Below the pieces are notes generated by a model. That model did not search any database. It was not told the DNA's origin and saw only the letters and a program-made list of their open reading frames with translations. From a bacterium (GTDB taxonomy: Bacteria; Patescibacteriota; Patescibacteriia; SBBB01), in contig SBBB01000025.1 of assembly GCA_005239895.1 (NCBI GenBank), positions 98,170 through 162,169 on the forward strand: a DNA stretch of 64,000 nt, written 5' to 3'. Below, piece by piece: positions 5,081 through 48,840 of this stretch (position 1 is its first letter; each line of letters begins with the position of its first letter). The translations under genes and the position numbers were made by a program.

Positions 5081-5356
5081 CTAACAACCCCCAACCATGC
5101 CCGGAGCTCCGGAATCGTTAGAAGTTGGAGTAGATACACTAGACGAACCATTGGTATTAACTCCACTGGTGCTTATTTTACCAGATAGTCGATATAGTTG
5201 AATGGTTTGAAAAAAAGTTACTAAAACAATTAAACCCAAAACAATGGTTTGGACATTAGGTTTCGCAATACGCAAAGTCATGGTATCATTATTTGAAGAT
5301 TCGGTATCCGTGGTTTCGGTATTTATTTGATCTTCGGATTCAGTATGATGTTTCAT
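5081..5356 (-). CDS. Small membrane protein (acidic N-terminus, one TM helix, Ser/Thr-rich tail)
   Basis: A strong SD (AAAGGAGGTG) lies 6 nt upstream of the ATG on the minus strand, with a TM segment IVLGLIVLVTFF. Confidence 0.5.
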   Translation of the reverse strand: MKHHTESEDQINTETTDTESSNNDTMTLRIAKPNVQTIVLGLIVLVTFFQTIQLYRLSGKISTSGVNTNGSSSVSTPTSNDSGAPGMVGGC

Positions 5357-5432
5357 ATTACACCTCCTTTAAAATATTAATATTTTAATAAAAATTAAAA
5401 CTAATAAATAATTATATTAACACCAGGTATAT

Positions 5433-5927
5433 ATGTCAATAGGAAAAATTTTTACTACCCACAAAAGAATTTACTACGATTATAATATTTTAGAAACTTT
5501 AAACGCCGGGATAGTATTAACAGGCCCGGAAGTTAAATCCGTCAAAAACGGACAGTGTAAACTTGACGGCTCTTATGCTATTTTAAAAATGACAAACTTA
5601 AAAAATAAATATAACACGGAACTTTTTCTTCTCAATGCTTATATTTCTCTTTATAAACCAGCTGGAGAATCAAAAAATTATGACCCCCAAAGAAGCCGCA
5701 AGTTATTATTAAATAAAAAGGAAATTAAAAATTTAAGCAATAAATTAATAAATAAACGCTTGACATTAATACCAATTAAGATGTATAATATGCATAATCG
5801 TGTCAAGGTTGAAATCGCCGTGTGTCAAATGAAAAAAAAGATTGACAAACGGCAATTAATCAAAAAACGAGAAATAAACCGAAAAATTCAAACTAATCTC
5901 CTGCAATCTCACAAGATTCGGGGATGA
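5433..5927 (+). CDS. smpB: SsrA-binding protein SmpB
   Basis: YYDYNILETLNAGIVLTGPEVKSVKNG matches the SmpB consensus, and tmRNA sits immediately downstream. Confidence 0.9.
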   Translation: MSIGKIFTTHKRIYYDYNILETLNAGIVLTGPEVKSVKNGQCKLDGSYAILKMTNLKNKYNTELFLLNAYISLYKPAGESKNYDPQRSRKLLLNKKEIKNLSNKLINKRLTLIPIKMYNMHNRVKVEIAVCQMKKKIDKRQLIKKREINRKIQTNLLQSHKIRG

Positions 5928-14542: not shown

Positions 14543-14602
14543 ATAAAGTTAAAAAGTCTAAAGCTTGTAAAGTTGTAGAGTTTATTGAATTAAAATTTAA
14601 AA

Positions 14603-14665
14603 ATCTAAGAAGCTACAAGCTAAAAAGCTAAGAAGCTAAAAAGCTAAGAAGCCAAGAAGCTATTT
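14603..14665. repeat. Tandem array (AAAAAGCTAAGAAGCTA)n, reverse complement of the array at 13652-13732
   Basis: About 90% identical to the reverse complement of 13652-13732, including the shared start AAAAATCTAA.AAGCTACAAGCTAAAAAGCTA. Confidence 0.7.
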
Positions 14666-14823
14666 AACACTATACCAGAAAGATAAAAAATATTAAAGTC
14701 ATTACTATACTCTTGACCCTATAAAAATTTTTATTACACAAAATTTGTGTTCTAAAATTATTCACCCCGCCAAGTCATTAAGTTACAGACTGGCGGGGAC
14801 AATTGTTTTGATTGATAATCGAC

Positions 14824-14852
14824 TTGATTAAATTCTCTTAATCTGCTATAGT
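14824..14852 (+). promoter_or_regulatory. Sigma70-like promoter (TTGATT-17 bp-TATAGT) for the gene at 14927
   Basis: Near-consensus -35 and -10 hexamers with a 17-nt spacer. A GC hairpin CCCCGCCAAG...CTGGCGGGG lies upstream at 14765-14798. Confidence 0.5.
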
Positions 14853-14926: not shown

Positions 14927-15412
14927 ATGAAAAAAATAGCGCAGCAGTTAGTTTTTGTTTTGTTTTTTGCAATACAAGCAACCGTCTTTGCATCAATACC
15001 AGTAGACACAGAACAACAAATCGCAGAAGAAGCGCCACCTGAAACAATATCTTGCAAGGAACAAGAATGTATTTTTGTAGGCGCTGAAATTGTCGGAAAG
15101 GGAGTTGTAAGTTTTAACTGGCACACCGGAAAACTATACGGTAGTTTTGAATGCAAATGGACAAAATGCTTTGTACCATTACTTCCAGGTACCACTCTAA
15201 CTCTTACAGCTATTCCATCGAATGCCCAATACTTTTTTGACGGGTGGTCACGTGATGGTTGCAAATTAAATGATCTTAATCAGTGTGTCATTACCATCAT
15301 TTTACAGTCTGGAGATAAAGATCAAGAAATCACGGCTCGCTTCATGCTAAGAAATCTTAATGAAGAACCTTCAAATGAGCCACCTCCACCCTACCCTACA
15401 GAAACGCCATAA
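14927..15412 (+). CDS. Secreted Cys-rich protein (signal peptide, Pro-rich C-terminus)
   Basis: N-terminal signal-like segment VFVLFFAIQATVFAS, 7 Cys, C-terminal EPPPPYPTETP. Confidence 0.55.
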   Translation: MKKIAQQLVFVLFFAIQATVFASIPVDTEQQIAEEAPPETISCKEQECIFVGAEIVGKGVVSFNWHTGKLYGSFECKWTKCFVPLLPGTTLTLTAIPSNAQYFFDGWSRDGCKLNDLNQCVITIILQSGDKDQEITARFMLRNLNEEPSNEPPPPYPTETP

Positions 15413-15724
15413 TGCAAACATCCGCGCGTTAATATTAATCTTGGTGGCGGAAGAAACATAATTTCGCCACCCAGATCACAAAACTTTTAAATATTACAAA
15501 ACTTTTTAGACAATAATAATCCTAATGTTTAGACAAAAATAACACGGACAACAATAATCGCAATTTTTAAACAACAATAGTCGCAAAATTATTTTTAAAA
15601 AACAAAATTACCGTGACAACCTATCACGATCGAGATGAAGTGTCACGCTTATAATACTATAACAAAAAATATGATATACCAATATCATATAATATAAATA
15701 CAAGTTAAATATTGATAAGTATTT

Positions 15725-15799
15725 TGGAGCCAATGGCCGGGATTGAACCGGCGACCTACTCCTTACCATGGAGTTGCTCTGCCACTGAGCTACATTGGC
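15725..15799 (-). tRNA. tRNA-Thr (anticodon GGT), CCA encoded
   Basis: Reverse complement GCCAATGTAGCTCAGTGGCAGAGCAACTCCATGGTAAGGAGTAGG..GGTTCAATCCCGGCCATTGGCTCCA. Cloverleaf with anticodon loop ATGGTAA. Confidence 0.85.
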
Positions 15800-15874
15800 G
15801 TATTAATATGCTAATATAATATAACTATTTAAACCTTCATAGTATAACTATTTAAATAACAACTGTCAAAAATC

Positions 15875-21948: not shown

Positions 21949-22117
21949 AATTTTGCTTCTTTAATAACTACGCAAAATTAAGATGACGATGAAGATGAAG
22001 AAGCTAGATATTAGATGATATATTGCAAAACAAAATTTTCCCTCATCTTCACCCTCATCCTTTAAAATACTAATTACTTACACTAATTATAAAAAATAAT
22101 AATTCTTAAAAAAAATC

Positions 22118-22167
22118 AATGTTTGGGAGTTGAACTCCCAAACATTGATTACTCCCAAACATTGATT
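22118..22167. repeat. Hairpin-B variant CAATGTTTGGGAGTTGAACTCCCAAACATTG plus a partial duplication ACTCCCAAACATTGATT
   Basis: Outer stem conserved. The inner stem GGGAG/CTCCC co-varies relative to GGTGG/CCGCC in other copies. Confidence 0.5.
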
Positions 22168-24460: not shown

Positions 24461-25177
24461 TTAATTTTTTGTTATAGTTCCTTCAAGAACATGGTCAGCA
24501 GGACTGGAATTATTATCATCAGGCTCTAAAGTTAAAACATAAAAACTATGACCAACTAAATTAGTTTTTGAAGAGTATTCATTTGTATAAACACCGTTAA
24601 CTTTTTTTGCTTTTCCAGTACTTATAACACTGAAATACAAACCTTTTCGTACTAACCAACCTTCGTAAAAATCACTTCCCTTGGGATCTGGCAATCCATT
24701 AAATGTTGCCTTGAGATTATAAATATCATCCTTGAAATTAGACTGAACAATGCCAGAACTATTATCTTCAAATTTAACACCAAGAATGGTTTTACCATTA
24801 GCAACATTTTTTAATTGACCAGAGTATTGATAAGTCATTGCTTCGATTTGATTTTTGTGCTCCATCGTCGCTCCAGCTTCCTTGTTGTCTACAGCTTCAA
24901 CTCCAGAAGTTTTTTCCATCATAGTTTCTTCCTTCTTTTCCATGACTGCACCATCTTTGTTCATCACCTCTTCTGGTGTTGCAACTGTCTCTTTCTTTTC
25001 CATCATTGCTTCGTCCTTTTTTATAACACCGTGATCTACTGAGGGCTTTCTCATAACAAAATATAAAGTTACTCCCCCTATCAAGACCAAAACTATAATA
25101 GCGATACTAATGGGCATCGCGAAGCCCTGCATCGTCTGGTTCTGGGCAAAACCTTTTTGTGAATTATTGCTTGTCAT
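24461..25177 (-). CDS. Membrane-anchored protein with Met/Glu/Lys-rich repeats and a C-terminal beta-rich domain
   Basis: TM helix AMPISIAIIVLVLIGGVTLYFV, then repeats VMEKKEETMMEKTSG. Confidence 0.5.
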   Translation of the reverse strand: MTSNNSQKGFAQNQTMQGFAMPISIAIIVLVLIGGVTLYFVMRKPSVDHGVIKKDEAMMEKKETVATPEEVMNKDGAVMEKKEETMMEKTSGVEAVDNKEAGATMEHKNQIEAMTYQYSGQLKNVANGKTILGVKFEDNSSGIVQSNFKDDIYNLKATFNGLPDPKGSDFYEGWLVRKGLYFSVISTGKAKKVNGVYTNEYSSKTNLVGHSFYVLTLEPDDNNSSPADHVLEGTITKN

Positions 25178-25491
25178 AAGTTTTTAATAAACATTAATTT
25201 AATTCAATTAATACTTTAAGTATAACCTAAAACATAAGTCACGTAAACTATACTTTACATCTAATTTGGGGATAACTTCTAACTTTATCCTACGGATGTG
25301 CGATCTAACAAAGGTTTTTGTTTATCGCCTAGATGGCACACTACCAAGTGCAATACATCCGTGGTAGTCTTGATCCCGTTAGAGGTTATTAAGAAGTATT
25401 TTGACTGGTTTAAACTAAATTATGATTAAAACGATATTTTATCATTTAGTGGTGCATTATGATTAGACTTCTGCCCGAAACCCCCACGATC

Positions 25492-25520
25492 TTGACAAAA
25501 GTTCAATAACATGCTATAAT
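25492..25520 (+). promoter_or_regulatory. Consensus sigma70 promoter TTGACA-17 bp-TATAAT
   Basis: Exact TTGACA (25492-25497) and TATAAT (25515-25520) with a 17-nt spacer, then a 5'-UTR hairpin AACCTTA-TAATCAG-TAAGGTT and SD GGAAAGGAG. Confidence 0.6.
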
Positions 25521-25566
25521 GCAACCTTATAATCAGTAAGGTTATAACAATAACGGAAAGGAGCAC

Positions 25567-25725
25567 ATGGACAGCGCAAAAACCAAAAACAAACAATTCA
25601 CCCTCCTCACTATGGAGAATATTTCGATTTTTAATGTTGATGGATGTCAAAAAACCAAACTGACAGGAAAGGAGCGAGAAGAGCTGCTTCTCAGACTTGA
25701 GCAAGGCGGCTGCTTGCCTGTTTAG
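25567..25725 (+). CDS. Unannotated small protein (52 aa): MDSAKTKNKQFTLLTMENISIFNVDGCQKTKLTGKEREELLLRLEQGGCLPV
   Basis: ATG 7 nt after SD GGAAAGGAG, preceded by a perfect promoter and followed by hairpin 25741-25775. Below the 60-aa cutoff of the ORF track. Local GC is higher than the surroundings. Confidence 0.5.
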   Translation: MDSAKTKNKQFTLLTMENISIFNVDGCQKTKLTGKEREELLLRLEQGGCLPV

Positions 25726-25740
25726 TTTCACAAACACACA

Positions 25741-25775
25741 TTAAAGCATTTATATTTACACCCGCCAGGATATTG
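25741..25775 (+). terminator. Hairpin CACCCGCCAGG-N13-CCTGGCGGGAT downstream of the small ORF
   Basis: 9-bp GC stem. The downstream T-tract is weak (ATCACTATGTATTTAAAAAAATTATTTTT). Confidence 0.4.
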
Positions 25776-25860
25776 TTCAACACCTGGCGGGATCACTATG
25801 TATTTAAAAAAATTATTTTTACCACCAATTCTTTGAAATCTAGCGTAATGTTTGAATATC

Positions 25861-25891
25861 TAATGTTTGGAGATCGGATCTCCAAACATTA
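25861..25891. repeat. Hairpin-B variant TAATGTTTGGAGATCGGATCTCCAAACATTA (plus a partial copy TAATGTTTG at 25846)
   Basis: Conserved outer stem; inner stem GGAGATC/GATCTCC co-varies. Confidence 0.5.
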
Positions 25892-25931
25892 AAATTTAAA
25901 ATATTTACTATTTTAACCATTAAAATAAAAA

Positions 25932-27305
25932 TTATTTGCTCATGGATATAACTTTTAATTGGCAAAGTTCTCTGAATCCAACTATACCATGCTCTCTACC
26001 CATACCAGATTTTTTGTATCCCCCAAAAGGATTAACTGGCAACCAACGATTGGCCTGATTAATCTCAACAGTTCCAGCTTCAATTTTTAATGCCACTCGT
26101 TTAGCGCGCTCTATATCCTTAGAAATAATTCTACTCCCAAGACCATAAATTGTATCATTGGCTAATTTAATTGCTTCTTCTTCGGTTTTAAATGTTACTA
26201 CTGGTAAAACTGGCCCAAAAACTTCTTCTTTCCAAACGCGCATATCTTTGGTGATATTTGTCAAAATCGTTGGTTCAAAAAAAGCTCCTTTTAAATTTTG
26301 GGGTGTTTTTCCACCTATAATCAATTTTGCTCCCTTAACTAAAGCATCTTTCAATTGTTGCTGTAATAAAATTAGTTGTCTTTTTGCTACTAAACTACCA
26401 AGGTCTGTATTTTTATTAAGCGGATCACCGATCTTTTTAGTTTTAACTAATTTTGTTAATTCTAAAATTACTCTTTCAAAAACTGATTCATGCACAATTA
26501 ATCTTTTTAACGCATCGCAAGATTGTCCACAATTTTGAAACCTGTCATTATAAATAATTTGTATCGCGCTGGGAATATTTACATCTTCAAAAACTATACA
26601 AGGATTTGATCCTCCCATTTCAAAAATTACTTTTATAAATTTTTTAGCCGCAGTTTGATAAAGTAATTGCCCTACTTTACTGCTTCCTGTAAACCAAATA
26701 AAATTAATATCACTCTGTGCAAGTTTTTCTCCTATGTCTCCACCTCCATAAATTTCTGAAAATACACCATTTGGTAAATCGTGATTTTTTAACATTTTTT
26801 CAATAAATTTTCCAACTAAGGGGCATTCTTCAGAAATCTTAAAAACAACAGTATTACCAACTATTAAGTTGGGTATAATACCCCAGACAGCCATCCCAAA
26901 AGGATAATTCCAAGGAGTAATCACTGCTGTTAATCCAAATGGTTCATAAATAATTTTATGAACTGAATTATCGTCTTCGTGGGTAATCTCGTCCTTTAAG
27001 GCCTGTTCACCATTGTCCATAAACCACTTAAATTTTTTAAGACCAGAATTTACCTCAGCCAAAGATCCCATAATAGGTTTACCTATTTCTAGAGAAATAA
27101 GTTTCGCAATTTCATCAGACCTATTTTGAAATTCAGTATAAATAGGTTTTAATAATTTAATTCTCTTTTTAATACCAAGTTCTTTCCAGGGTGTTTTAGC
27201 TTTGTGAGCTAAATCAACTTTTTCTTTAATTTCTTGATCTGTAGATATTTCCACTTCACCAATAGCCTCATAGTTTCGGGCTGGATTTGTTGAAATTAAT
27301 TTCAT
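25932..27305 (-). CDS. NAD(P)-dependent aldehyde dehydrogenase
   Basis: FTGSSKVGQ, catalytic Cys region NCGQSCDA, and EEVFGPV Glu motif. Confidence 0.9.
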   Translation of the reverse strand: MKLISTNPARNYEAIGEVEISTDQEIKEKVDLAHKAKTPWKELGIKKRIKLLKPIYTEFQNRSDEIAKLISLEIGKPIMGSLAEVNSGLKKFKWFMDNGEQALKDEITHEDDNSVHKIIYEPFGLTAVITPWNYPFGMAVWGIIPNLIVGNTVVFKISEECPLVGKFIEKMLKNHDLPNGVFSEIYGGGDIGEKLAQSDINFIWFTGSSKVGQLLYQTAAKKFIKVIFEMGGSNPCIVFEDVNIPSAIQIIYNDRFQNCGQSCDALKRLIVHESVFERVILELTKLVKTKKIGDPLNKNTDLGSLVAKRQLILLQQQLKDALVKGAKLIIGGKTPQNLKGAFFEPTILTNITKDMRVWKEEVFGPVLPVVTFKTEEEAIKLANDTIYGLGSRIISKDIERAKRVALKIEAGTVEINQANRWLPVNPFGGYKKSGMGREHGIVGFRELCQLKVISMSK

Positions 27306-29793: not shown

Positions 29794-30549
29794 TTACTCT
29801 CCTAAATACGCTTCAACTACTTCTCTTTTTGCTAAAACTTTATCAGGGGCACCTTCGGCTAATAACCTGCCTTCGTCCATAACAAAAATATAATCACAAA
29901 GTTCACGCATTAAACCCATATCGTGTTCAATTAAAATTACAGTTTTATTTTCTTTTTTAAATTCTTGAATAATATCCGCAAGCATTTTTTTCATTTCTGG
30001 AAAAAGTCCAGCAAAAGGTTCGTCTAATAAATAAATGTCGGCTTTCATGGCTAATATCCTAGCAATTTCCAAAAGCTTTCTTTGCCCGTAAGATAGATTA
30101 ATAACTAATTGATCTTTTTTGCTCCAAAGATTAATTTTATGCAAAACTTCTTCGGCAATTTTTAAATGATAAGTTGTGTGTTTTTCAAAAAGAGAACCAA
30201 AAATATTTCTTTCAGTTAAAACAACCAAAATATTATCCAACACGGTCATTTGTTCAAAAAGCCTAACATTTTGAAAGGTTCGCGTAATTCCGTAAAAAGA
30301 AATTTGGCGCGATAATATTTTATTAAATTTTTGAGCTTCATTAATTACCACTTCTCCAGCATCTATAGATAACATGCCACTCAATAAATTTATAAATGTA
30401 GTTTTCCCCGATCCATTTGGGCCTACTATACCAGTAATACTCCCCCTTTCTATGTTTATAGAAAGATGATCAACAGCGTGAACACCACCAAATTGTTTTA
30501 TTAAATTTTTAGTTTCAATAGCTAACATAAACAAGTTAAAAGTTCGCAA
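29794..30549 (-). CDS. livG: Branched-chain amino acid ABC transporter ATP-binding protein LivG
   Basis: LIKQFGGVHAV, GPNGSGKTT, LSYGQRKLLEIAR and LLDEPFAG motifs. Confidence 0.85.
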   Translation of the reverse strand: MRTFNLFMLAIETKNLIKQFGGVHAVDHLSINIERGSITGIVGPNGSGKTTFINLLSGMLSIDAGEVVINEAQKFNKILSRQISFYGITRTFQNVRLFEQMTVLDNILVVLTERNIFGSLFEKHTTYHLKIAEEVLHKINLWSKKDQLVINLSYGQRKLLEIARILAMKADIYLLDEPFAGLFPEMKKMLADIIQEFKKENKTVILIEHDMGLMRELCDYIFVMDEGRLLAEGAPDKVLAKREVVEAYLGE

Positions 30550-30582
30550 AGTTATAAAGTTCGTAAAATTTTAAAAAAATAG

Positions 30583-30867
30583 TTATTTTTCTAAAACAAA
30601 CCTTTCCACTAATTTGTCATTGAATTTTACTATAGAGAACCACTCATCAAGTGGCCTTGTAAATAATTCAGCGTCAGCATTTTGATAAAGCGGTTTATAC
30701 ACAACCATCCAAATATCATCATTAGAATGAATTGCAAGACCAACTACTTCATACTTGTCACCTTTATAATGAAGATATTTTTCGCCTTTCTTTGGTGTTC
30801 TTTCTGGCATTTTAGGTATCCATCCTTTTGTCATAATAAATATATTATCACAAACAAAACAATACAA
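30583..30867 (-). CDS. DUF1653-family small protein
   Basis: YLHYKGDKYEVVGLAIHSNDDIWMVVYKPLY...LFTRPLDEW matches the DUF1653 consensus. The true start may be an internal Met. Confidence 0.55.
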   Translation of the reverse strand: MYCFVCDNIFIMTKGWIPKMPERTPKKGEKYLHYKGDKYEVVGLAIHSNDDIWMVVYKPLYQNADAELFTRPLDEWFSIVKFNDKLVERFVLEK

Positions 30868-30873
30868 GAAGCA

Positions 30874-31824
30874 TTAAGAGCAAGACCGAGAAACTCCGTC
30901 TGCTAATCCTAGACATGTATTCATATTTTTATCAGAAAATTTTAAAGTCGAAATTTCTGGACTAGCCCGATGATTTAATACAGTTAAACCAGTATCAATT
31001 CGTATCTGATCTGGATATTTATAAGTTGTACTGTGTAGTTCATGACGCAAAACTTCTAAAGATAAATCGTTGTTATCACTATCAGTAATAGGAACAATAA
31101 GGAAGGGATGATCAAATGTTAAACGATTACCACCAAAACTACGCTCACTAAAAGCAATACCAATCGCAACCCTTATATTCTTCTGGGCAACTTCTTTTGC
31201 AAAATGAGACCTAGATATAATAAAACCCTGCGGTAATTGTTCAGTATTATTAAAACGACCTGTAGCATCATAATAAGCAACAAAGGCTCTATGAAAACCT
31301 TCTGGTCTTTGCATAGATAAATCCACTAAAGAATCTTTTTGCCAATCTATATGACCTAAATATTTAGTATTACAAATCTCGGCTAATTTTTTTGCCCATT
31401 CAATGGCGTAATAATCTGGAGGAAGAGATATATCAATTTTATCTTTATTTTTATTAATATAAACTGTGGCGCAACCACACTCTGCGTGACTATACACGCC
31501 TTTAATGTTTTTTCCTTTTAAAGCTTCTACCACTTGCTCTTGATGCAAAATACCAGATCCACCAATTCTAATACCACCACCAGATATACCTTCGTCAATA
31601 CAACGAACACAATTATCATTTTCTCTAAACATTGAATCTGTATTTATATTAGTATCTTCAATATATTTTTTAAAACCTTTTTCCCACAAAGACTTAAACT
31701 TATTTTTTTGTTCTTTCCAATATTCTTCAATATTAAAATGTTCTTCAGGCTCAGATAATTTATGCATATTTTTTATGTTTACAAATAATAATTTAAAAAC
31801 AATCAAAAAATAATACACCCACAC
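30874..31824 (-). CDS. Hypothetical Cys/His-containing protein (CxxC...HAECGC), function unknown
   Basis: 316-aa ORF with no recognisable family. The first 19 aa are possibly a spurious extension (internal MHKLSEPEE). Confidence 0.5.
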   Translation of the reverse strand: MWVYYFLIVFKLLFVNIKNMHKLSEPEEHFNIEEYWKEQKNKFKSLWEKGFKKYIEDTNINTDSMFRENDNCVRCIDEGISGGGIRIGGSGILHQEQVVEALKGKNIKGVYSHAECGCATVYINKNKDKIDISLPPDYYAIEWAKKLAEICNTKYLGHIDWQKDSLVDLSMQRPEGFHRAFVAYYDATGRFNNTEQLPQGFIISRSHFAKEVAQKNIRVAIGIAFSERSFGGNRLTFDHPFLIVPITDSDNNDLSLEVLRHELHSTTYKYPDQIRIDTGLTVLNHRASPEISTLKFSDKNMNTCLGLADGVSRSCS

Positions 31825-31974
31825 AATATAAGTGTCAAGTAAATTTATCTACCTAATATAACCTGTAAATTAAAAGAGCCCCTATGTTGCGATTGTAGGG
31901 GCTCACTATGTTAATGTTGCTTTTTTATAATGCGCATTTCGGTTAAAAAAACCAAAAAGCAGCAACTCTTCTAT

Positions 31975-32181
31975 TTATTTATCTGTCCTGGATGTTAATT
32001 TTACCTGCCATATATCAGTTAAACATAACATGAGTAAGAAAAAACACACTATCGACACTAAGCCTGCTACCTGAATGTCTGTAAAAAGAAACACTATAAA
32101 ACTTATGGAACAAAGAGCCGAAGAAAGATATACAGATACTACTAAAAAACTGGTTCGTATTTGCGTTATAAGATTTTTCAT
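31975..32181 (-). CDS. Small two-TM membrane protein
   Basis: SD AGGAGAA 5 nt upstream of the ATG; 68 aa, hydrophobic. Confidence 0.45.
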   Translation of the reverse strand: MKNLITQIRTSFLVVSVYLSSALCSISFIVFLFTDIQVAGLVSIVCFFLLMLCLTDIWQVKLTSRTDK

Positions 32182-32532
32182 GATGTTCTCCTAATTATTT
32201 ACAAGGGTTGATTAAATTTCAAAACTTCAAAATTAAACTAGAGATACGCCATAAGCATTTTTAGTTTATATTTAAGTTTACCGTAAATATATTTTTTGTC
32301 AACCTCGTTAGAGATTATAAAAACCTATCTTATCTATATTTTAGACAGAATTATAGCTACCAATTATTTAACCATAAATATAAAATATAAACCTCTAACT
32401 GGGTCAACCAAATATTTTTTAAAAAACAGGTAGGGAGTCATCCAATAAAGACTCCCTACCACCATAATAAACCGCAATAAACCGCGGTAATATTTTACCA
32501 AAAAAATACCATCATCTTCGTGAAAATTGATA

Positions 32533-32928
32533 TCACCCAAACGAACAATCAAGATCACGAAAGTTAATCAATATTCCTTCTGGTAACTTGGTTTTTAGCT
32601 CTTTTATCTTGGTTGCTAATCCATCCGAACACTGATTGTCGCCAATGTTTCGAGAAAGATTATAAACATTGGCTGTGCCCCAATAAACACGCTCCTGATA
32701 AATAGCCTTTTGGCCATAAGTGTTTATAACCACAAACCGAAGCATGTGTCCAAAATATAACTCAGGACCTGTGCTCCCAATTTGATTGCTATTGTTTCTT
32801 ACGACCCAGTATGACTCTGCCTCTACAGATTTGCAGCTTGACTCTTTCGCAATCTCTACAAGTTCTTCCATGGTCTCAACCTCGTACGGAAAAAACTGTA
32901 AAATTAAACGTTTAATAAACTCTAACAT
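32533..32928 (-). CDS. Hypothetical protein (131 aa from the Met with SD)
   Basis: SD AAAGGAGG 6 nt upstream of the internal ATG (MLEFIKR...). The ORF-track start at 32967 has no SD. Local GC is elevated. Confidence 0.5.
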   Translation of the reverse strand: MLEFIKRLILQFFPYEVETMEELVEIAKESSCKSVEAESYWVVRNNSNQIGSTGPELYFGHMLRFVVINTYGQKAIYQERVYWGTANVYNLSRNIGDNQCSDGLATKIKELKTKLPEGILINFRDLDCSFG

Positions 32929-33064
32929 GGTGGCCTCCTTTCGTGCGTCGGTTCTACTTAGAGCCATTGCCTAAGCTCTCTATAAATATAACATATTATT
33001 TAATTTTAACAAATTTTGTTGTTTTTCAAACAATTGCATTTTAAGTATATATAGAATAAACTAT

Positions 33065-33099
33065 GAAGCTACTTGGAAGTTTCGCTTCCAAGTAGCTTC
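33065..33099. repeat. REP-like hairpin GAAGCTACTTGGAAG-TTTCG-CTTCCAAGTAGCTTC overlapping the RayT stop codon
   Basis: Perfect 15-bp arms; contains GTAG; sits immediately 3' of the transposase gene. Confidence 0.6.
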
Positions 33100-33767
33100 T
33101 AATCGACTTCTAAAGCTTTTTTTCTAGACTGTGTGTCCTGCCAAGATTCTATAGCAAAGTCTAGATATATTTTTGGGTTTTTAAATTGATCTAATATAAT
33201 TTTTGTATCACATAAACCTTTCTCGTTTTTAATATATTCTTCTAAGCTAGATTTACTTAAACTAAGAATTTTATTTCCGGATTTATCTCGATTGTTCATA
33301 TTTATATAAGCGCTTAAATGAATCAGGTATCGATTATCAGATATATGTTTTGATTGAAAATTCCCCTGAAATAACACACCATTTCTTTTATATTTTTCAT
33401 TGAAATATTTAGTATAACCACCAATCCGTTGCATAAATTTTTCAATTCCTTTTTCTACAACAGGGGTGATAAGAAAATGAAAATGGTTTGGATTTATACA
33501 AAAAGCTATAATTGAAACCAACTTGGAAGTTTCGCTTCCAAGTTTTTCTTTGTCTTTTTTAAAAGAAAATTCATAAATACTCCCAATGGGTTCTAATCTA
33601 TTAAAATCTTTTATACTTTTTAACAAACGATCTAAATCAAATTTATCAAGAATTATTTTTCTTTTATCAACACCACGATTGTATATGTGATAATATTCTC
33701 CAATAATAAATTCATGTTTTCTAGTACTCATAAATAAATAATAACATATTTGGTTAATTAGTAACAA
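33099..33767 (-). CDS. IS200/IS605-like HUH Y1 transposase of the REP-associated (RayT-like) type
   Basis: YHIYNRGVDKRKIIL, HUH motif NHFHFLITP, and GVLFQGNFQSKHISDNRYLIHLSAYINMN (matching the G.LWQGR.KS...YL..RYIELNP pattern of RayT/TnpA-REP). The real start is probably the second Met (MSTRKHEF). Confidence 0.65.
   Translation of the reverse strand: MLLINQICYYLFMSTRKHEFIIGEYYHIYNRGVDKRKIILDKFDLDRLLKSIKDFNRLEPIGSIYEFSFKKDKEKLGSETSKLVSIIAFCINPNHFHFLITPVVEKGIEKFMQRIGGYTKYFNEKYKRNGVLFQGNFQSKHISDNRYLIHLSAYINMNNRDKSGNKILSLSKSSLEEYIKNEKGLCDTKIILDQFKNPKIYLDFAIESWQDTQSRKKALEVD
33520..33544. repeat. REP-like hairpin AACTTGGAAGTTTCGCTTCCAAGTT located inside the RayT coding sequence
   Basis: Encodes LGSETSKL in frame; same core as the 33065 and 15875 copies. 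Confidence 0.5.
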
Positions 33768-33813
33768 CCACTTAGGAGCAAGGCACCTAAGTTAGTAGGA
33801 AGTAACTCTCAGT

Positions 33814-34698
33814 TTACAATTTATACTCCCCTATTAAGCCTTGCGGCCTATAAAGCATTAATAAAATTAAAATAACTCCATATACTACTTGCCTCATTTG
33901 AGCGGCTATGTCTGGTGGAAAACCAACAAAACGCAAAATTTCAGGCAATAATATTAAAAACAATGCTCCCAAAACTGCGCCACGCAAATTAGCTAGTCCT
34001 CCTAAAATAATAATAGCTAGAATAAATATGGATTCGTGTATAGTAAAACTAGTGGGGTCAATAAATGTAATATAAGAAGCGAAAAGCGAACCAGCGATGG
34101 ATGCCATAACAGCAGCCACAATAAAAATCATTAATTTAAAATATAAAACATTGTAACCAAAGACCTCTATGGCCTTTTCATCTTCTCTAATAGCTTTCAA
34201 AACCCTACCAAACGAAGAATTAATTATAAAATATGACAAATAATAAATTAAAATTAAAAACGCAAAAGTAAGAATTAAAAATGCGAAATTATTCGAAATT
34301 AAAAATTGGAAATTAAAAATTTTTATTTCCGGTCTAGCAATGCCTGGTATACCCAAAGGCCCTCTCGTAACACTTTGCCAATTTAATAAAATCGCAAAAA
34401 TAATAGTATTAAAACCCAAAGTGCCCAAAGCATAATAATCGCCTTTAAATTTTGATAATACTAAACCAATCAACAAACTAATAACAGCGGTTATAATCAT
34501 GCCCAATATAATTGAAACAAAAAATCCCAATTTAAATTGAGTTAATAAAATAGCGGTAGTATAAGCTCCAATACCATAAAAAGCAGCATGAGTTACAGAT
34601 AACAATCCAGTATAACCTACAACTAAATTTAAGCTAACCACAAGCATGGCGTAAATAGCGAACAAAATTGAGAGATGAACTAAGTATTCCATAAACAA
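33814..34698 (-). CDS. livM: Branched-chain amino acid ABC transporter permease LivM
   Basis: Polytopic permease with the LivM-type pattern GYTGLLSVTHAAFYGIGAYT. Confidence 0.8.
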   Translation of the reverse strand: MFMEYLVHLSILFAIYAMLVVSLNLVVGYTGLLSVTHAAFYGIGAYTTAILLTQFKLGFFVSIILGMIITAVISLLIGLVLSKFKGDYYALGTLGFNTIIFAILLNWQSVTRGPLGIPGIARPEIKIFNFQFLISNNFAFLILTFAFLILIYYLSYFIINSSFGRVLKAIREDEKAIEVFGYNVLYFKLMIFIVAAVMASIAGSLFASYITFIDPTSFTIHESIFILAIIILGGLANLRGAVLGALFLILLPEILRFVGFPPDIAAQMRQVVYGVILILLMLYRPQGLIGEYKL

Positions 34699-34700
34699 TA

Positions 34701-34842
34701 AAACCCTAAACTCTAAACACTAAATACTAAACACTAAACAAAATAATTATAACACAAACTTTATACTCTAAATCTACCACAAATTCCACTATAAGCAAAA
34801 GAATAAACCCTAAACTCTAAACAAACTTAAAAACTAAAATAC
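34701..34842. repeat. Two direct copies of AAACCCTAAACTCTAAACA, the first extended into a (ACTAAAY)n array
   Basis: 34701-34744 and 34805-34842 read directly. Inverted partner at 35211-35255. Confidence 0.6.
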
Positions 34843-35205
34843 TTACGATCTACATTTTTCTACTATAGAACCAAAAATCTTCATCAGCTCAGTAACTTCC
34901 TGAATCAACTCATCTTTCTCTCTATGTTGATCTAACTTAGGCTCACTTAAAACCAACCAATACCTACTTTCTTTAGCTTCTTTCCTAGATATTTTTATTC
35001 TCATAATAAAATCTTTTTTACTTAATGATTCTTCGACTTCAATATAATTAGCCCCCACTGATCCAGCCGATCTAACCAATTGCTTACCAATTTCAATATT
35101 AGATATAGTTTTGGATAAATTATTTACATAAACATTAGCTCTCTTAGCAAATTTAAGAGTTCTGTCCCCTAAGTCATATTGTTTTGTATTTTGAATTTTG
35201 ATCAT
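34843..35205 (-). CDS. Four-helix-bundle protein of the 23S rRNA intervening-sequence protein family
   Basis: RSAGSVGANYIEVEES...SRKEAKESRYWL matches the TIGR02436/PF05635 signature (GS..SI..NIAEG...E..YWL). Inserted between livH and livM. Confidence 0.65.
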   Translation of the reverse strand: MIKIQNTKQYDLGDRTLKFAKRANVYVNNLSKTISNIEIGKQLVRSAGSVGANYIEVEESLSKKDFIMRIKISRKEAKESRYWLVLSEPKLDQHREKDELIQEVTELMKIFGSIVEKCRS

Positions 35206-35210
35206 TTGAA

Positions 35211-35255
35211 TTTGTTTAGTGTTTAAAATTTAGTATTTAGTGTTTTATTTTCTAA
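35211..35255. repeat. (GTTTAGT)n array, reverse complement of the 34701-34744 array; overlaps the livH stop
   Basis: TTTGTTTAGTGTTTAAAATTTAGTATTTAGTGTTTT is the reverse complement of AAAACACTAAATACTAAATTTTAAACACTAAACAAA. Confidence 0.6.
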
Positions 35256-36117
35256 TGATTCCGGTCGGTCTGAATATCAAAAATAGTATTAATAATCCAA
35301 AAGCAATGGCATCTTTCCATTCTCCGGATATTTTCCAAATACCAAAATTTTCTACAAAACCTAAAATAAACGCGCCCAGCACACCACCAAAAATACTCCC
35401 AATTCCACCAACAATAGAAGCAATAACACCCTTAAGCAGCAATCCTAATCCCATAGTTGGTTCAATACCAGTATCAAAACCAACTAAAATACCAGTTAAT
35501 CCAGCAATAGCTGAACCTATAAAAAACACCACACTGATTATCTTGTTAGTATTAATGCCAACTATTTTGGCTACTTCTTCATCGTCAGTCACAGCTCTGA
35601 CAGCTTTACCAAATTTAGTTTTATAAAGAAACAAAATCAGTCCGCATGCAACTGCAATAGCAGATATTAAAATAATCAGTTGGGTTTGAGTTATTAAACC
35701 ACCGAAAATATTAAAAATTTTTGAAGTGTCAATGTTAAATGAAAGCGTTTGAAATTGACTTGTAAATAAAATAGCAATTATGGCTTGAATGGCTGTAAAA
35801 GTTCCCAATGAAGCTACTAATAAAACCATACTGGACGCTTTTCTTTTTCTAAGCGGTAAATAAATAATTTTATCTAAAGCATAACCAAATAAACCAGTAA
35901 TTATAATACCTAAAACAACAGCTAGATATAAATTTAAACCCAAGGTTTTAGTAAAATAAAAAACTGAATAGCCAGCTATAGTTGCCATTACTCCGTGCGC
36001 TAGGTTAAAAAATTTAGTAACTCCGTAAATTAAATTAAAACCCAGAGAAATTAAAGCATAAACTGCTCCGGCAATAAGACTATTTAAAACCAATTGAGAA
36101 AAAATAGACATAGACAA
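35245..36117 (-). CDS. livH: Branched-chain amino acid ABC transporter permease LivH
   Basis: LivH-like polytopic permease (LNSLIAGAVYALISLGFNLIYG...). Confidence 0.85.
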   Translation of the reverse strand: MSMSIFSQLVLNSLIAGAVYALISLGFNLIYGVTKFFNLAHGVMATIAGYSVFYFTKTLGLNLYLAVVLGIIITGLFGYALDKIIYLPLRKRKASSMVLLVASLGTFTAIQAIIAILFTSQFQTLSFNIDTSKIFNIFGGLITQTQLIILISAIAVACGLILFLYKTKFGKAVRAVTDDEEVAKIVGINTNKIISVVFFIGSAIAGLTGILVGFDTGIEPTMGLGLLLKGVIASIVGGIGSIFGGVLGAFILGFVENFGIWKISGEWKDAIAFGLLILFLIFRPTGIIRK

Positions 36118-37426: not shown

Positions 37427-37462
37427 GGCGGCGCTAAAGTATCACAGCGCCGCTTTCATATT
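37427..37462. terminator. Bidirectional terminator hairpin GGCGGCGCT-AAAGTATCAC-AGCGCCGC followed by a T-tract
   Basis: Between the convergent pyrF and thyX-like genes; TTTCATATTTT follows. Confidence 0.5.
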
Positions 37463-41047: not shown

Positions 41048-41054
41048 TTATATC

Positions 41055-41101
41055 ATTTTATTACTAAAAAGAGATGCCCGCAACTAATGAACGTTGCGGG
41101 C
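41055..41101 (-). terminator. Rho-independent terminator (GCCCGCAAC...GTTGCGGGC plus T-run on the minus strand)
   Basis: Minus-strand reading gives GCCCGCAACGTTCATTAGTTGCGGGCATCTCTTTTTAG. Confidence 0.5.
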
Positions 41102-41127
41102 AATATTATGAATTGAACATATTCTAA

Positions 41128-41328
41128 TCAAATGCCTTGCCGCCAACCTGGATTGTAAAATTGGTCACGGAGCACATCTTGCGTACTGTGAGTATCATTA
41201 AGTAAAATATCCACGCGCAATACTTCTTCACTTATTACTGTAAAATAAGTCTTGAACCCCACGCCTTCTTCACAAATAACGCAATCAATTTTAGTCTGCA
41301 ATCTTGTTAATGCGGTTTCTGTAATCAT
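41128..41328 (-). CDS. Small hypothetical protein (66 aa, CVICEEG)
   Basis: ORF followed by a terminator; no family recognised. Confidence 0.35.
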   Translation of the reverse strand: MITETALTRLQTKIDCVICEEGVGFKTYFTVISEEVLRVDILLNDTHSTQDVLRDQFYNPGWRQGI

Positions 41329-41600
41329 GCTTCTCCTCCTTTTGTGGCTTGATGTTTATTCTGCTAATATGCAAAACGCTATTTGTTTTAGCTTTTGCTA
41401 ACAACAAAAACCAGCCCTAGCAGTGAAGGACTGGCTTTTGTTCTTAAATGAAGTTATTTTAAAAACACGAAGTCAAACCTCCACTTTTAGCGAGGCTGAT
41501 ACATAAACTAATAATACTGCTAAACTGTTTTGTATTCTTCGTATTTTTACACATAATTCTAATTATATAATAAAACCGTTGATATTGTCAAGAGCAACAA

Positions 41601-47126: not shown

Positions 47127-47137
47127 ATTTTTCTTGG

Positions 47138-47253
47138 TTATCCACAGTTTTTAGTGGTTATTAACACTTTTATCCACTTTTATACACTGTAGATACACTA
47201 TACACCACCTATAAATATAAATTCAAGTAATATTTACTAAAAACTGTGGATAA
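47138..47253 (-). promoter_or_regulatory. Candidate MraZ operator: five or more AGTG[GT][AT]T boxes at about 10-11 bp spacing upstream of mraZ (two read as perfect DnaA boxes TTATCCACA on the opposite strand)
   Basis: Minus strand reads GGTGTAT AGTGTAT CTAC AGTGTAT AAA AGTGGAT AAA AGTGTTA ... CTGTGGATAA. DnaA-box-like 9-mers sit at 47138-47146, 47170-47178 and 47245-47253. Confidence 0.5.
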
Positions 47254-47413
47254 CACTTAATAACTACAAAGTAGAATGTAGAAAATAATTATTTTGCCAT
47301 TAAAGGCTTAGAACCAGGTGAATTGACGAAGAGCTTAAAAATACATTAAAATACTTACCGTAGTTTATCAATTTTTGACCCATAAACCGACATAAACCGC
47401 AAAGGAGAATATT

Positions 47414-47626
47414 ATGAGTAAGGATACCGCGGCACCAAATTTAAAATCTTCAATATCTTTAGAGTGTCCCTGTTGCACCAATTTAATGAAACCAGACGAA
47501 ATAACATGTGTGCGTTGTCATGTAGTCTCTACGGTCCACCAGCGGAACGAGCTATATCGAGAACATAGCACGCATATCAAGGAAAGTGCGGAACATAAAT
47601 TCCGCTCCTACTTAGCCAATTTGTAG
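47414..47626 (+). CDS. Small zinc-ribbon protein (ECPCC...CVRCH), paralogue A
   Basis: SD AAAGGAG upstream of the ATG. CxxC-x13-CxxC. Shares ECPxCxNLMxPxE..C..CH..ST..QR..L..EH..HI with the ORF at 47914. Confidence 0.55.
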   Translation: MSKDTAAPNLKSSISLECPCCTNLMKPDEITCVRCHVVSTVHQRNELYREHSTHIKESAEHKFRSYLANL

Positions 47627-47913
47627 CTCTGATCTAATTGAAAATTAGGGTATTGACTTTTAAAGCAGTTTTTAAAAACTGCCAAAAACTTATACCGCAT
47701 TATCGAACAATGATAATGCGGTTGTCTATTTTAAAAATTTTGATAGGTTGTATTTTAAATCATAAATCATAAATCTTATATCTTAAATTACTTTCAACTT
47801 TCAACTTTATAAACCTTCTAACTCTTCTAATTGACTCTGGTCTTAAAATTTATTAAAGTAATTAGTATGGTTTTGAGTTTTTGGTGTATAAATTATTAAG
47901 GAAGGAGGATTAC

Positions 47914-48156
47914 GTGGATAAAAAAGTTAGAAAAAAACCTTCAAATTCTTTTGAGTGTCCAGGTTGTCCTAACTTAATGGAACCAACAGAAAAAGAATGT
48001 CAAAAATGCCATTTATGTTCTACATATCAACAGCGTCGTGCGCTCCAACACGAACATGGTGTGCATATTTATGTAAGCACGGGATATAAACATACAGCCG
48101 AGGAAGACCTACCTTTTATGGAAAACGCCCGAAGAGTGCACGAAGGAGATTCCTAA
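47914..48156 (+). CDS. Small zinc-ribbon protein (ECPGC...CQKCH), paralogue B; GTG start inferred
   Basis: Strong SD AAGGAAGGAGGA 6 nt before the GTG at 47914. The ORF-track ATG at 47881 would place the SD inside the coding sequence. Confidence 0.5.
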   Translation: MDKKVRKKPSNSFECPGCPNLMEPTEKECQKCHLCSTYQQRRALQHEHGVHIYVSTGYKHTAEEDLPFMENARRVHEGDS

Positions 48157-48196
48157 ACCATGCTGTTAAAATCAATTGTTGTAAACAACTCATCAA

Positions 48197-48237
48197 AGTC
48201 TCCGAATACTTGCTGTTATTCGGAGACTTATCTTTTT
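48197..48237 (+). terminator. Strong rho-independent terminator (AAGTCTCCGAATA...TATTCGGAGACTT plus ATCTTTTT)
   Basis: 13-bp perfect stem and T-run directly after zinc-ribbon paralogue B. Confidence 0.7.
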
Positions 48238-48419
48238 AAAAAAGGAAGCTTTTGATTTAAACAAAAGACTTCCCAATATTTTTTGGAACCAATCATATAA
48301 TGATGTATTGAGTTTTTAAAAAATTCTTAAACCCGTCAATTTGCCAATACAAACAAACTTCAAGGGGTTGATCGTAAATAATATGATCAACCCTCCATGC
48401 AAACTATTTCATCTTTTAA

Positions 48420-48608
48420 TTAATTATGCGAGTGTGCATATGCATTTCTGCAGGCCTTTTTGTCAAAGTATGTAATTTTGTTGTTGAGGTTAATACCCCA
48501 GCGCCTACGAAATATGAATGACCTACATACAATACACACCAACCCACGGTCAATTAAATAAGATTGTAATTTCATAAACCAGTTTAATCTGATAATCCAG
48601 TTTGGCAT
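48420..48608 (-). CDS. Small hypothetical protein (62 aa, CIVC)
   Basis: SD AAGGAGG 7 nt upstream of the ATG on the minus strand. A hairpin GGGTTGATC...GATCAACCC lies downstream. Confidence 0.4.
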   Translation of the reverse strand: MPNWIIRLNWFMKLQSYLIDRGLVCIVCRSFIFRRRWGINLNNKITYFDKKACRNAYAHSHN

Positions 48609-48840
48609 TGCACGTTCCTCCTTATATTTTGCCTTTTTATGGCATTTTTACTGATATTATAACAATGATAGAAAAAAGCAATTTTGTCAATTCCTATCGG
48701 TAATGGCAGAAATCCAACCATAATCTCCTCTTGCTTTTTATCTAAAAACGTGCTATAATATAGTATTGATTTGTACCTTTATAAAAACACAAACAAATTT
48801 CGCAAATCTATTTATATAAGCAATTCAGTGGATAAAAAGT

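Follow-up and report, generated by a model that had tools for sequence, protein, structure and literature searches.

A full-consensus promoter and a candidate orphan gene for a 52-residue protein in a patescibacterial intergenic spacer

What is encoded by a short stretch of intergenic DNA that carries a perfect promoter, a hairpin at either end, a strong Shine-Dalgarno (SD) sequence and an open reading frame (ORF) of 52 codons? This question is raised by a 754-bp spacer (25178-25931) between two minus-strand genes, which is the home of the unit described here and lies in a 64,000-nt stretch of a patescibacterial contig, hereafter the window (Table 1). The preliminary description presented the unit as an unannotated small gene and offered toxin, bacteriocin precursor, signalling peptide and regulatory leader as its possible roles. 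The word unannotated has to be withdrawn, since public annotation had called the ORF and the identical 52-residue protein is present once, from NCBI, in an NCBI-derived protein set, where it belongs to a contig of 194,557 bp; this favors the reading as a protein gene. A separate, strongly promoted unit encoding a 52-residue peptide, as first described, is the most likely interpretation, in view of the rarity of such an ORF with an SD in shuffled sequence and of its gene-like composition in frame. With slightly more confidence than doubt, we regard the unit as a monocistronic gene that stands by itself and encodes a soluble cytoplasmic protein confined to its lineage (an orphan), a reading that is based on sequence features.

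Table 1. Coordinates of the unit, its neighbors and related features in the window
Feature	Position	Strand	Remarks
RskA_C-like membrane protein gene	24461-25177	minus	upstream of the unit, divergent
Sigma-70-type promoter	25492-25520	+	-35 TTGACA 25492-25497, 17-nt spacer, TG 25512-25513, -10 TATAAT 25515-25520
5' hairpin, AACCUUAU-AAUCA-GUAAGGUU	25523-25543	+	at or beside the predicted 5' end of the transcript; 8 bp, 5-nt loop
Shine-Dalgarno-like GGAAAGGAG	25555-25563	+	3 nt lie between the AAGGAG core and the ATG at 25567
52-codon ORF and stop, MDSAKTKNKQFTLLTMENISIFNVDGCQKTKLTGKEREELLLRLEQGGCLPV	25567-25725	+	ATG 25567; stop 25723-25725
GC hairpin, CCCGCCAGG-N13-CCTGGCGGG	25761-25791	+	9-bp stem, 13-nt loop; 36 nt after the stop codon
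AT-rich long palindrome, core AATGTTTGGAGATC / GATCTCCAAACATT	25847-25905		between the unit and the convergent ALDH gene
Aldehyde dehydrogenase (ALDH) gene	25932-27305	minus	next gene after the unit, convergent
Seven GC hairpins	14765-14798, 15443-15471, 25761-25791, 31876-31904, 32429-32460, 37428-37453, 41075-41102		
DUF1653 gene	30583-30867		insertion inside the liv operon
IS200-like Y1 transposase gene	33099-33767		inside the liv operon; 15-bp hairpin at the 3' end, 33065-33099
23S-rRNA-IVP/Avd-like protein gene	34843-35205		inside the liv operon

The window has a GC content of 32.7% and contains tmRNA, SmpB and bacterial ribosomal-protein genes. Genes neighboring the unit are of the housekeeping or transport type, namely fmt, def, priA, ruvB, a tRNA gene and those for an FG-GAP/ASPIC protein, the RskA-like protein, the ALDH and a Liv-type ABC importer. 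For the ALDH and the RskA-like protein, the closest relatives belong to genome bins of the candidate phyla radiation (Patescibacteria) and of DPANN, which points to a Patescibacteria-like uncultured bacterium. Those of the ALDH come partly from DPANN archaeal bins (Woesearchaeota, 69%) and partly from various Patescibacteria, and a partial copy, 85% identical, occurs in a different gene context (locus L019 of L001-L020); together, these observations suggest that the ALDH gene was horizontally transferred. The operon for the Liv-type ABC importer (29794-36117) is itself broken up by small inserted genes (Table 1).

The promoter had been called a perfect consensus and a rarity, and both statements stand. 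It scores 12/12 with an extended -10 element, and the exact arrangement TTGACA-17-TATAAT is observed twice in the window against 0.02 occurrences expected from shuffles, which favors the protein-gene reading. When at most one mismatch is permitted, seven sites are found where 1.36 are expected, a number reached in 0 of 100 shuffles. The predicted transcription start lies at about 25527-25529, and no promoter-like site is present on the minus strand between 25500 and 25800. Consensus promoters appear to be used in the organism harboring the unit, since a near-consensus site (15841-15869) sits just upstream of a tRNA gene (15728-15799) and the second perfect site (5411-5439, minus strand) precedes a 91-residue gene with a perfect SD.

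This second perfect promoter overlaps the start of smpB and drives an ORF of 91 residues (5081-5356, minus strand), which is preceded by AAGGAGGT, shows native codon use and encodes a product with one membrane helix and the C-terminal sequence ...APGMVGGC that has no Pfam, NCBIfam or PHROG family. The 91-residue gene resembles the unit in its 12/12 promoter, its strong SD and its small product in an SD-poor genome, and the occurrence of the same signal set before an ORF with native codons is in favor of the protein reading. However, its native codons (LLR 0.26, GC3 0.26), better SD spacing and hydrophobic helix are features of which the 52-codon ORF has none.

The hairpin reported in the 5'-UTR is present. 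It has a predicted stability of -7.2 kcal/mol (z -4.0), which was equaled in 0 of 200 shuffles, and it may adopt an alternative register at 25527-25547 if transcription starts at 25527. A GC hairpin had likewise been described downstream of the ORF; the hairpin itself is there, but the end then given for the unit, 25775, cuts it in half. It folds with -18.6 kcal/mol (z -4.8), and the minus strand folds equally well. While its stem, with 8 GC pairs among the 9 bp, is canonical, its loop and its tail, AUCACUAUGUAU, are not. A canonical intrinsic terminator was therefore rejected, as the loop exceeds the short range of 3-8 nt and a U tract is lacking. Nevertheless, the hairpin is presumed to be the 3' end or terminator of the unit. 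It may work as a terminator because two like hairpins, at 15443 and 37428, follow other genes, about 30 nt past the gene ends, and it probably belongs to a non-canonical way in which the organism ends its transcripts.

The window has seven hairpins of this type, with GC stems of 7-11 bp and loops of 8-15 nt but without a U tract, all of them intergenic; three longer, less GC-dense palindromes are not counted among the seven. Such GC-stem, large-loop intergenic hairpins may be non-canonical terminators of the organism. The stems at 14765 and 25761 are nearly identical in sequence. The hairpin at 14765 had also been noted, together with a near-consensus promoter, ahead of the secreted Cys-rich protein gene at 14927. 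The hairpin was found there, whereas the promoter-like site, TTGATT-17-TATAGT (14824-14852), reaches only 9/12, with an extended -10 element. A search of viral contigs with the GC-hairpin pattern returned 115 matches, which were dismissed as generic GC hairpins without extended similarity.

The strong SD of the preliminary description is present as well, with the caveat that its spacing to the ATG, 3 nt, is short. In the clearest SD of the window, 6 nt follow AAGGAGG, a difference that counts against the protein reading. Within the 25 nt before the start codon, an SD-like motif is absent in 43 of the 56 window genes, whose upstream regions are simply AT-rich, and present in about 13. Translation initiation in the organism thus appears to be largely SD-independent, and the SD of the 52-codon ORF is unusual for this genome, since most window genes lack one, which likewise tells against the protein reading. 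The SD forms part of a 10-mer, GGAAAGGAGC, at 25555-25564, which recurs exactly at 25666-25675, 111 nt away and in frame.

The ORF was found exactly as it had been written, and several measures support its being a gene. ATG-initiated ORFs of at least 52 codons arise in 2.7% of 20,000 dinucleotide shuffles of the transcript body; when an upstream SD-like motif is also demanded, the proportion falls to 0.1%. The amino-acid composition score in the ORF frame is 0.139, compared with a mean of 0.137 for real genes, and is reached by 1.8% of out-of-frame controls, while scores in the five remaining frames of this DNA range from -0.04 to -0.20. Additionally, GC1 (0.50) and GC2 (0.33) are close to the values for the genes of the genome (0.42 and 0.33). 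The transcript body of 213 nt has no significant RNA structure (z -0.74 and -0.78 on the two strands), a further point for a protein gene; in the centroid fold, neither the SD nor the start region is paired, and significant structure is confined to the two terminal hairpins. RNAs of the 6S, SRP or RNase P type are excluded by this unstructured body, which fits an mRNA with protective end hairpins.

The synonymous positions point the other way. The codon-usage score of the ORF is -0.13 to -0.14 per codon, against a mean of 0.23 for 52 reference genes, all of which score -0.02 or higher. A score this low is seen in 0.1% of 52-codon pieces of real genes, whereas 41% of spurious ORFs score as high. 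Similarly, GC3 is 0.46, outside the range of 0.17-0.40 in the 52 window genes, which argues against a native gene. High expression was considered as the cause of this shift in GC3 and codon use and was rejected, as ribosomal-protein genes show no such shift. The local rise in GC that had been pointed out is real, with 0.43 in the ORF, 0.25-0.27 in the AT-rich flanks and a window mean of 0.327; nevertheless, 0.43 is barely above the GC-richest genes of the window (0.41), and the true outlier is GC3. The plus strand is also poor in T, which is a point against the protein reading. Because fewer stop codons then arise on both strands, this bias explains the antisense ORF (25426-25737, minus strand; 103 residues), which had rightly been judged implausible and scores as non-coding (codon LLR -0.25).

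A coding signal at the amino-acid level, combined with an anomaly at synonymous sites only, has the look of a young or imported gene, and the GC-rich third positions suggest that the ORF is young or was derived from a GC-richer donor. The lesson is that a single coding measure is insufficient here, as the amino-acid signals indicate a gene, while the synonymous-site signals indicate foreign or non-coding DNA. A single-sequence AlphaFold2 model of the 52-residue product adopts a beta-beta-beta-alpha arrangement, with a best pLDDT of 74.9 (range 47.8-74.9), and has no fold match. No weight was given to this model because the antisense translation of the same DNA reaches a pLDDT of 69.6.

Relatives of the product were sought widely. 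A word-indexed search of 5.8 billion clusters matched the ORF to itself only, making the protein a singleton among about 15 billion proteins. An exhaustive phmmer search of 1.84 billion representatives gave eight matches at E ≤0.001. One of them is the query, and the other seven are long repeat proteins (PD40 propellers, tandem Rad51 P-loops and a 126-residue tandem repeat). These seven are regarded as artefacts, since their scores sum many weak repeats and their families disagree; the ORF itself has no PD40 match. Profiles of Pfam, NCBIfam, PHROGs and PADLOC gave no match to the ORF, translated scans of JGI metagenomes and IMG/VR viral contigs gave no relative, and neither tblastn of the ORF against plasmid records nor blastn of the 754-bp spacer against plasmid and phage records returned a match. 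The sole PDB match, an aminomethyltransferase (E 0.12), was set aside because the GcvT/YgfZ alignment registers are inconsistent and Smith-Waterman P values are 0.78 for E. coli GcvT and 0.09 for E. coli YgfZ. A resemblance to CsrA that was seen by eye gives no alignment in BLASTP. At the nucleotide level, an Rfam search of the unit yielded nothing meaningful at gathering thresholds or even at E up to 10, and self-BLAST revealed no second copy in the window.

A search for homologous small ORFs beside the FG-GAP or ALDH genes of related genomes had been proposed; none of the 60 FG-GAP loci and 20 ALDH loci inspected has the gene neighborhood of the unit. No shared neighborhood emerged through the RskA-like protein either (43 proteins including the query; three contigs fetched). 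The nearest flanking-gene relatives in this synteny search are 40-69% identical. The Logan contigs of SRR6943130 match the window exactly, without any variation.

The functional roles first offered for the peptide fare poorly, each of toxin, bacteriocin or RiPP precursor, secreted signal and leader peptide being contradicted by at least one defining feature. A type I toxin requires a hydrophobic, membrane-spanning peptide, whereas the 52-residue peptide is hydrophilic (GRAVY -0.43; best 19-residue hydropathy window 0.38) and has neither a signal peptide nor a membrane helix, which makes both a type I toxin and a Sec-secreted peptide unlikely; the lack of a minus-strand promoter that could supply an antisense RNA is a further reason to reject the toxin. 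That the peptide is the precursor of an exported or modified product (bacteriocin, RiPP or signal), processed by cleavage behind the Gly-Gly at residues 47-48 or by modification of both Cys residues (27 and 49), is very improbable and already weakly refuted by context. The attraction of this reading lies in the strong promoter, the two Cys residues and a C-terminus, ...ELLLRLEQGG|CLPV, loosely like the end of a double-glycine leader. In double-glycine-leader peptides, which include class II bacteriocins and NHLP/Nif11-type RiPP precursors, the likeness extends to a Leu/Glu-rich amphipathic helix that ends in Gly-Gly and, here, is followed by Cys. However, only four residues remain after the Gly-Gly in the 52-residue peptide, a signal peptide or hydrophobic segment is lacking, no leader-peptide family matches in Pfam or NCBIfam, and among the genes scanned within about 10 kb (17.2-37.4 kb) there is no C39-peptidase ABC exporter and no RiPP-modifying enzyme (radical-SAM, YcaO or lanthipeptide type), the nearby ABC genes being Liv-type importers. 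The earlier suggestions of a bacteriocin precursor and of a signalling peptide lose their footing for the same reasons. The reading as a leader peptide, an attenuator or an antisense regulator acting on a neighboring gene would account for a small ORF that has a strong promoter in front and a hairpin on either side, but can hardly be sustained, as the upstream gene is divergent, the ALDH gene that follows is convergent and separated from the unit by two strong hairpins, and no gene lies downstream on the same strand for a leader to control.

Two further explanations place the function outside the protein or deny it altogether. Under the first, the unit specifies a regulatory RNA of about 270 nt (base-pairing, protein-titrating or dual-function) in which the ORF is incidental or secondary, and activity would reside in an A/C-rich, unstructured segment containing CCUCCU (25576-25610) or in the numerous GGA motifs. 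We consider this unlikely, though it accommodates much of the evidence: the perfect promoter and terminal hairpins are arranged as for RNA genes in the window, the unit is GC-richer than the surrounding intergenic DNA, codon use is non-native, no protein homologue was found, the SD-to-ATG spacing is short, the 10-mer repeats exactly, and an anti-SD-like CCUCCU is present at about 25601-25606. GGA occurs nine times in the transcript (25527-25795) against 3.6 expected (P 0.004); however, such an excess is what the ORF's Gly, Lys and Glu codons would produce, and no array of GGA-loop hairpins, as in a sponge of the CsrB/RsmZ type, accompanies it. The lack of an Rfam family, the unstructured body, the low chance frequency of the ORF with its SD and the gene-like amino-acid composition in the ORF frame only also stand against the RNA. 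SgrS/SgrT, RNAIII/delta-haemolysin and SR1/SR1P are dual-function sRNAs, and the unit is like them in its transcript of about 270 nt, strong promoter, terminal hairpins, small ORF and unstructured, pairing-capable stretches; it differs in having no homology to them and no target, conserved seed or chaperone recognizable in the 64-kb window, and its ORF makes up 60% of the transcript, above most such RNAs. Under the second explanation, which we judge quite unlikely, the unit has no selected function and is either a remnant of foreign DNA in decay or a proto-gene that carries strong expression signals by chance, any peptide made having no role. The singleton status of the protein, its foreign GC3, a neighborhood that took up an IS200-like Y1 transposase, DUF1653 and 23S-IVP genes in the liv operon, and a spacer GC of 0.33, the second-highest among gene-free spacers of more than 200 bp in the window, all accord with this view. 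Against it, the 12/12 promoter, the SD, the intact ORF and the hairpins at the 5' and 3' ends follow one another in the right order and spacing, a set that would be unlikely to persist or arise together without selection, and neither a transposase or integrase remnant nor convincing terminal repeats flank the region.

We give little credence to a wider version, in which the GC-richer island of about 550 bp at 25250-25800 is an acquired module that combines a structured RNA (25264-25398) with a highly expressed orphan mini-protein or dual-function RNA. If this were true, the module might have a role in an episymbiotic, Patescibacteria-like lifestyle, e.g., as an RNA of the titrating or anti-SD kind or as a mini-protein that binds a partner. 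The RNA in question is a 135-nt element with a three-way junction fold and a 13-bp closing stem, situated about 95 nt upstream of the perfect promoter. On the plus strand, which is favored by G-U pairs, it folds with -43 kcal/mol (z -3.8), compared with -35.9 kcal/mol (z -2.5) on the minus strand. It has no Rfam match, tRNA-like call or second copy in the window, and a single-sequence covariance model, run over 505 kb of fetched loci, detected no further one.

Returning to the orphan protein gene as the favored explanation, the full-consensus, TG-extended sigma-70 promoter would direct strong, probably constitutive transcription from near 25527. The first 20 or so nucleotides of the transcript could then form a 5'-terminal stem-loop that would slow 5'-end-dependent decay. 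The SD, unusually strong for the genome, lies where it would bring ribosomes to the ATG; both the SD and the ATG are seen in the sequence, and translation is predicted from them. Judging from its position and from the like hairpins after other genes, the GC hairpin would end and protect an mRNA of about 270 nt. The product has no export signal and, being too small for an enzyme, would act by binding a partner. Trypsin would release QFTLLTMENISIFNVDGCQK, EELLLR and LEQGGCLPV from it.

Such a unit would be an ordinary member of a very common class, the orphan small ORFs of uncultured bacteria. It resembles orphan small proteins, which are of about 50 codons or fewer and have their own promoter and terminator, in being a stand-alone monocistronic unit with intact expression signals and no detectable family, and its 52 codons lie just over the usual 50-codon limit. 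It differs from them in that its synonymous codon use is foreign to the genome, no relative was found and its translation is a prediction. Translation of the ORF would add a further lineage-specific mini-protein to those of bacteria whose small proteins are almost unexplored. Furthermore, the promoter, 5' hairpin, SD and hairpin terminator together make up a compact expression cassette, which is a potential genetic part for these organisms.

Other spacers of the window are long for a small genome, namely 31825-32532, 41048-41600 and 47127-48840 (553-1714 bp), and have no Rfam match. That at 31825-32532 contains two GC hairpins, along with a near-consensus promoter on the minus strand (31810-31838). 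Ahead of the secreted Cys-rich protein gene, the divergent spacer of 619 bp includes a low-complexity run based on AAGCT (aagctaagaagctaaaaagctaagaagcc...) at 14600-14660. The AT-rich palindrome beyond the unit (-20 kcal/mol, z -6.0 on the minus strand) is probably the terminator of the ALDH gene and an insulator between the convergent transcripts. A second palindrome, at 22114-22167, shares with it the common core AATGTTTGG(G)AG / CTCCCAAACATT and carries a third tandem arm. Both palindromes lie downstream of minus-strand genes, and they could represent a repeated terminator or a REP-like element.
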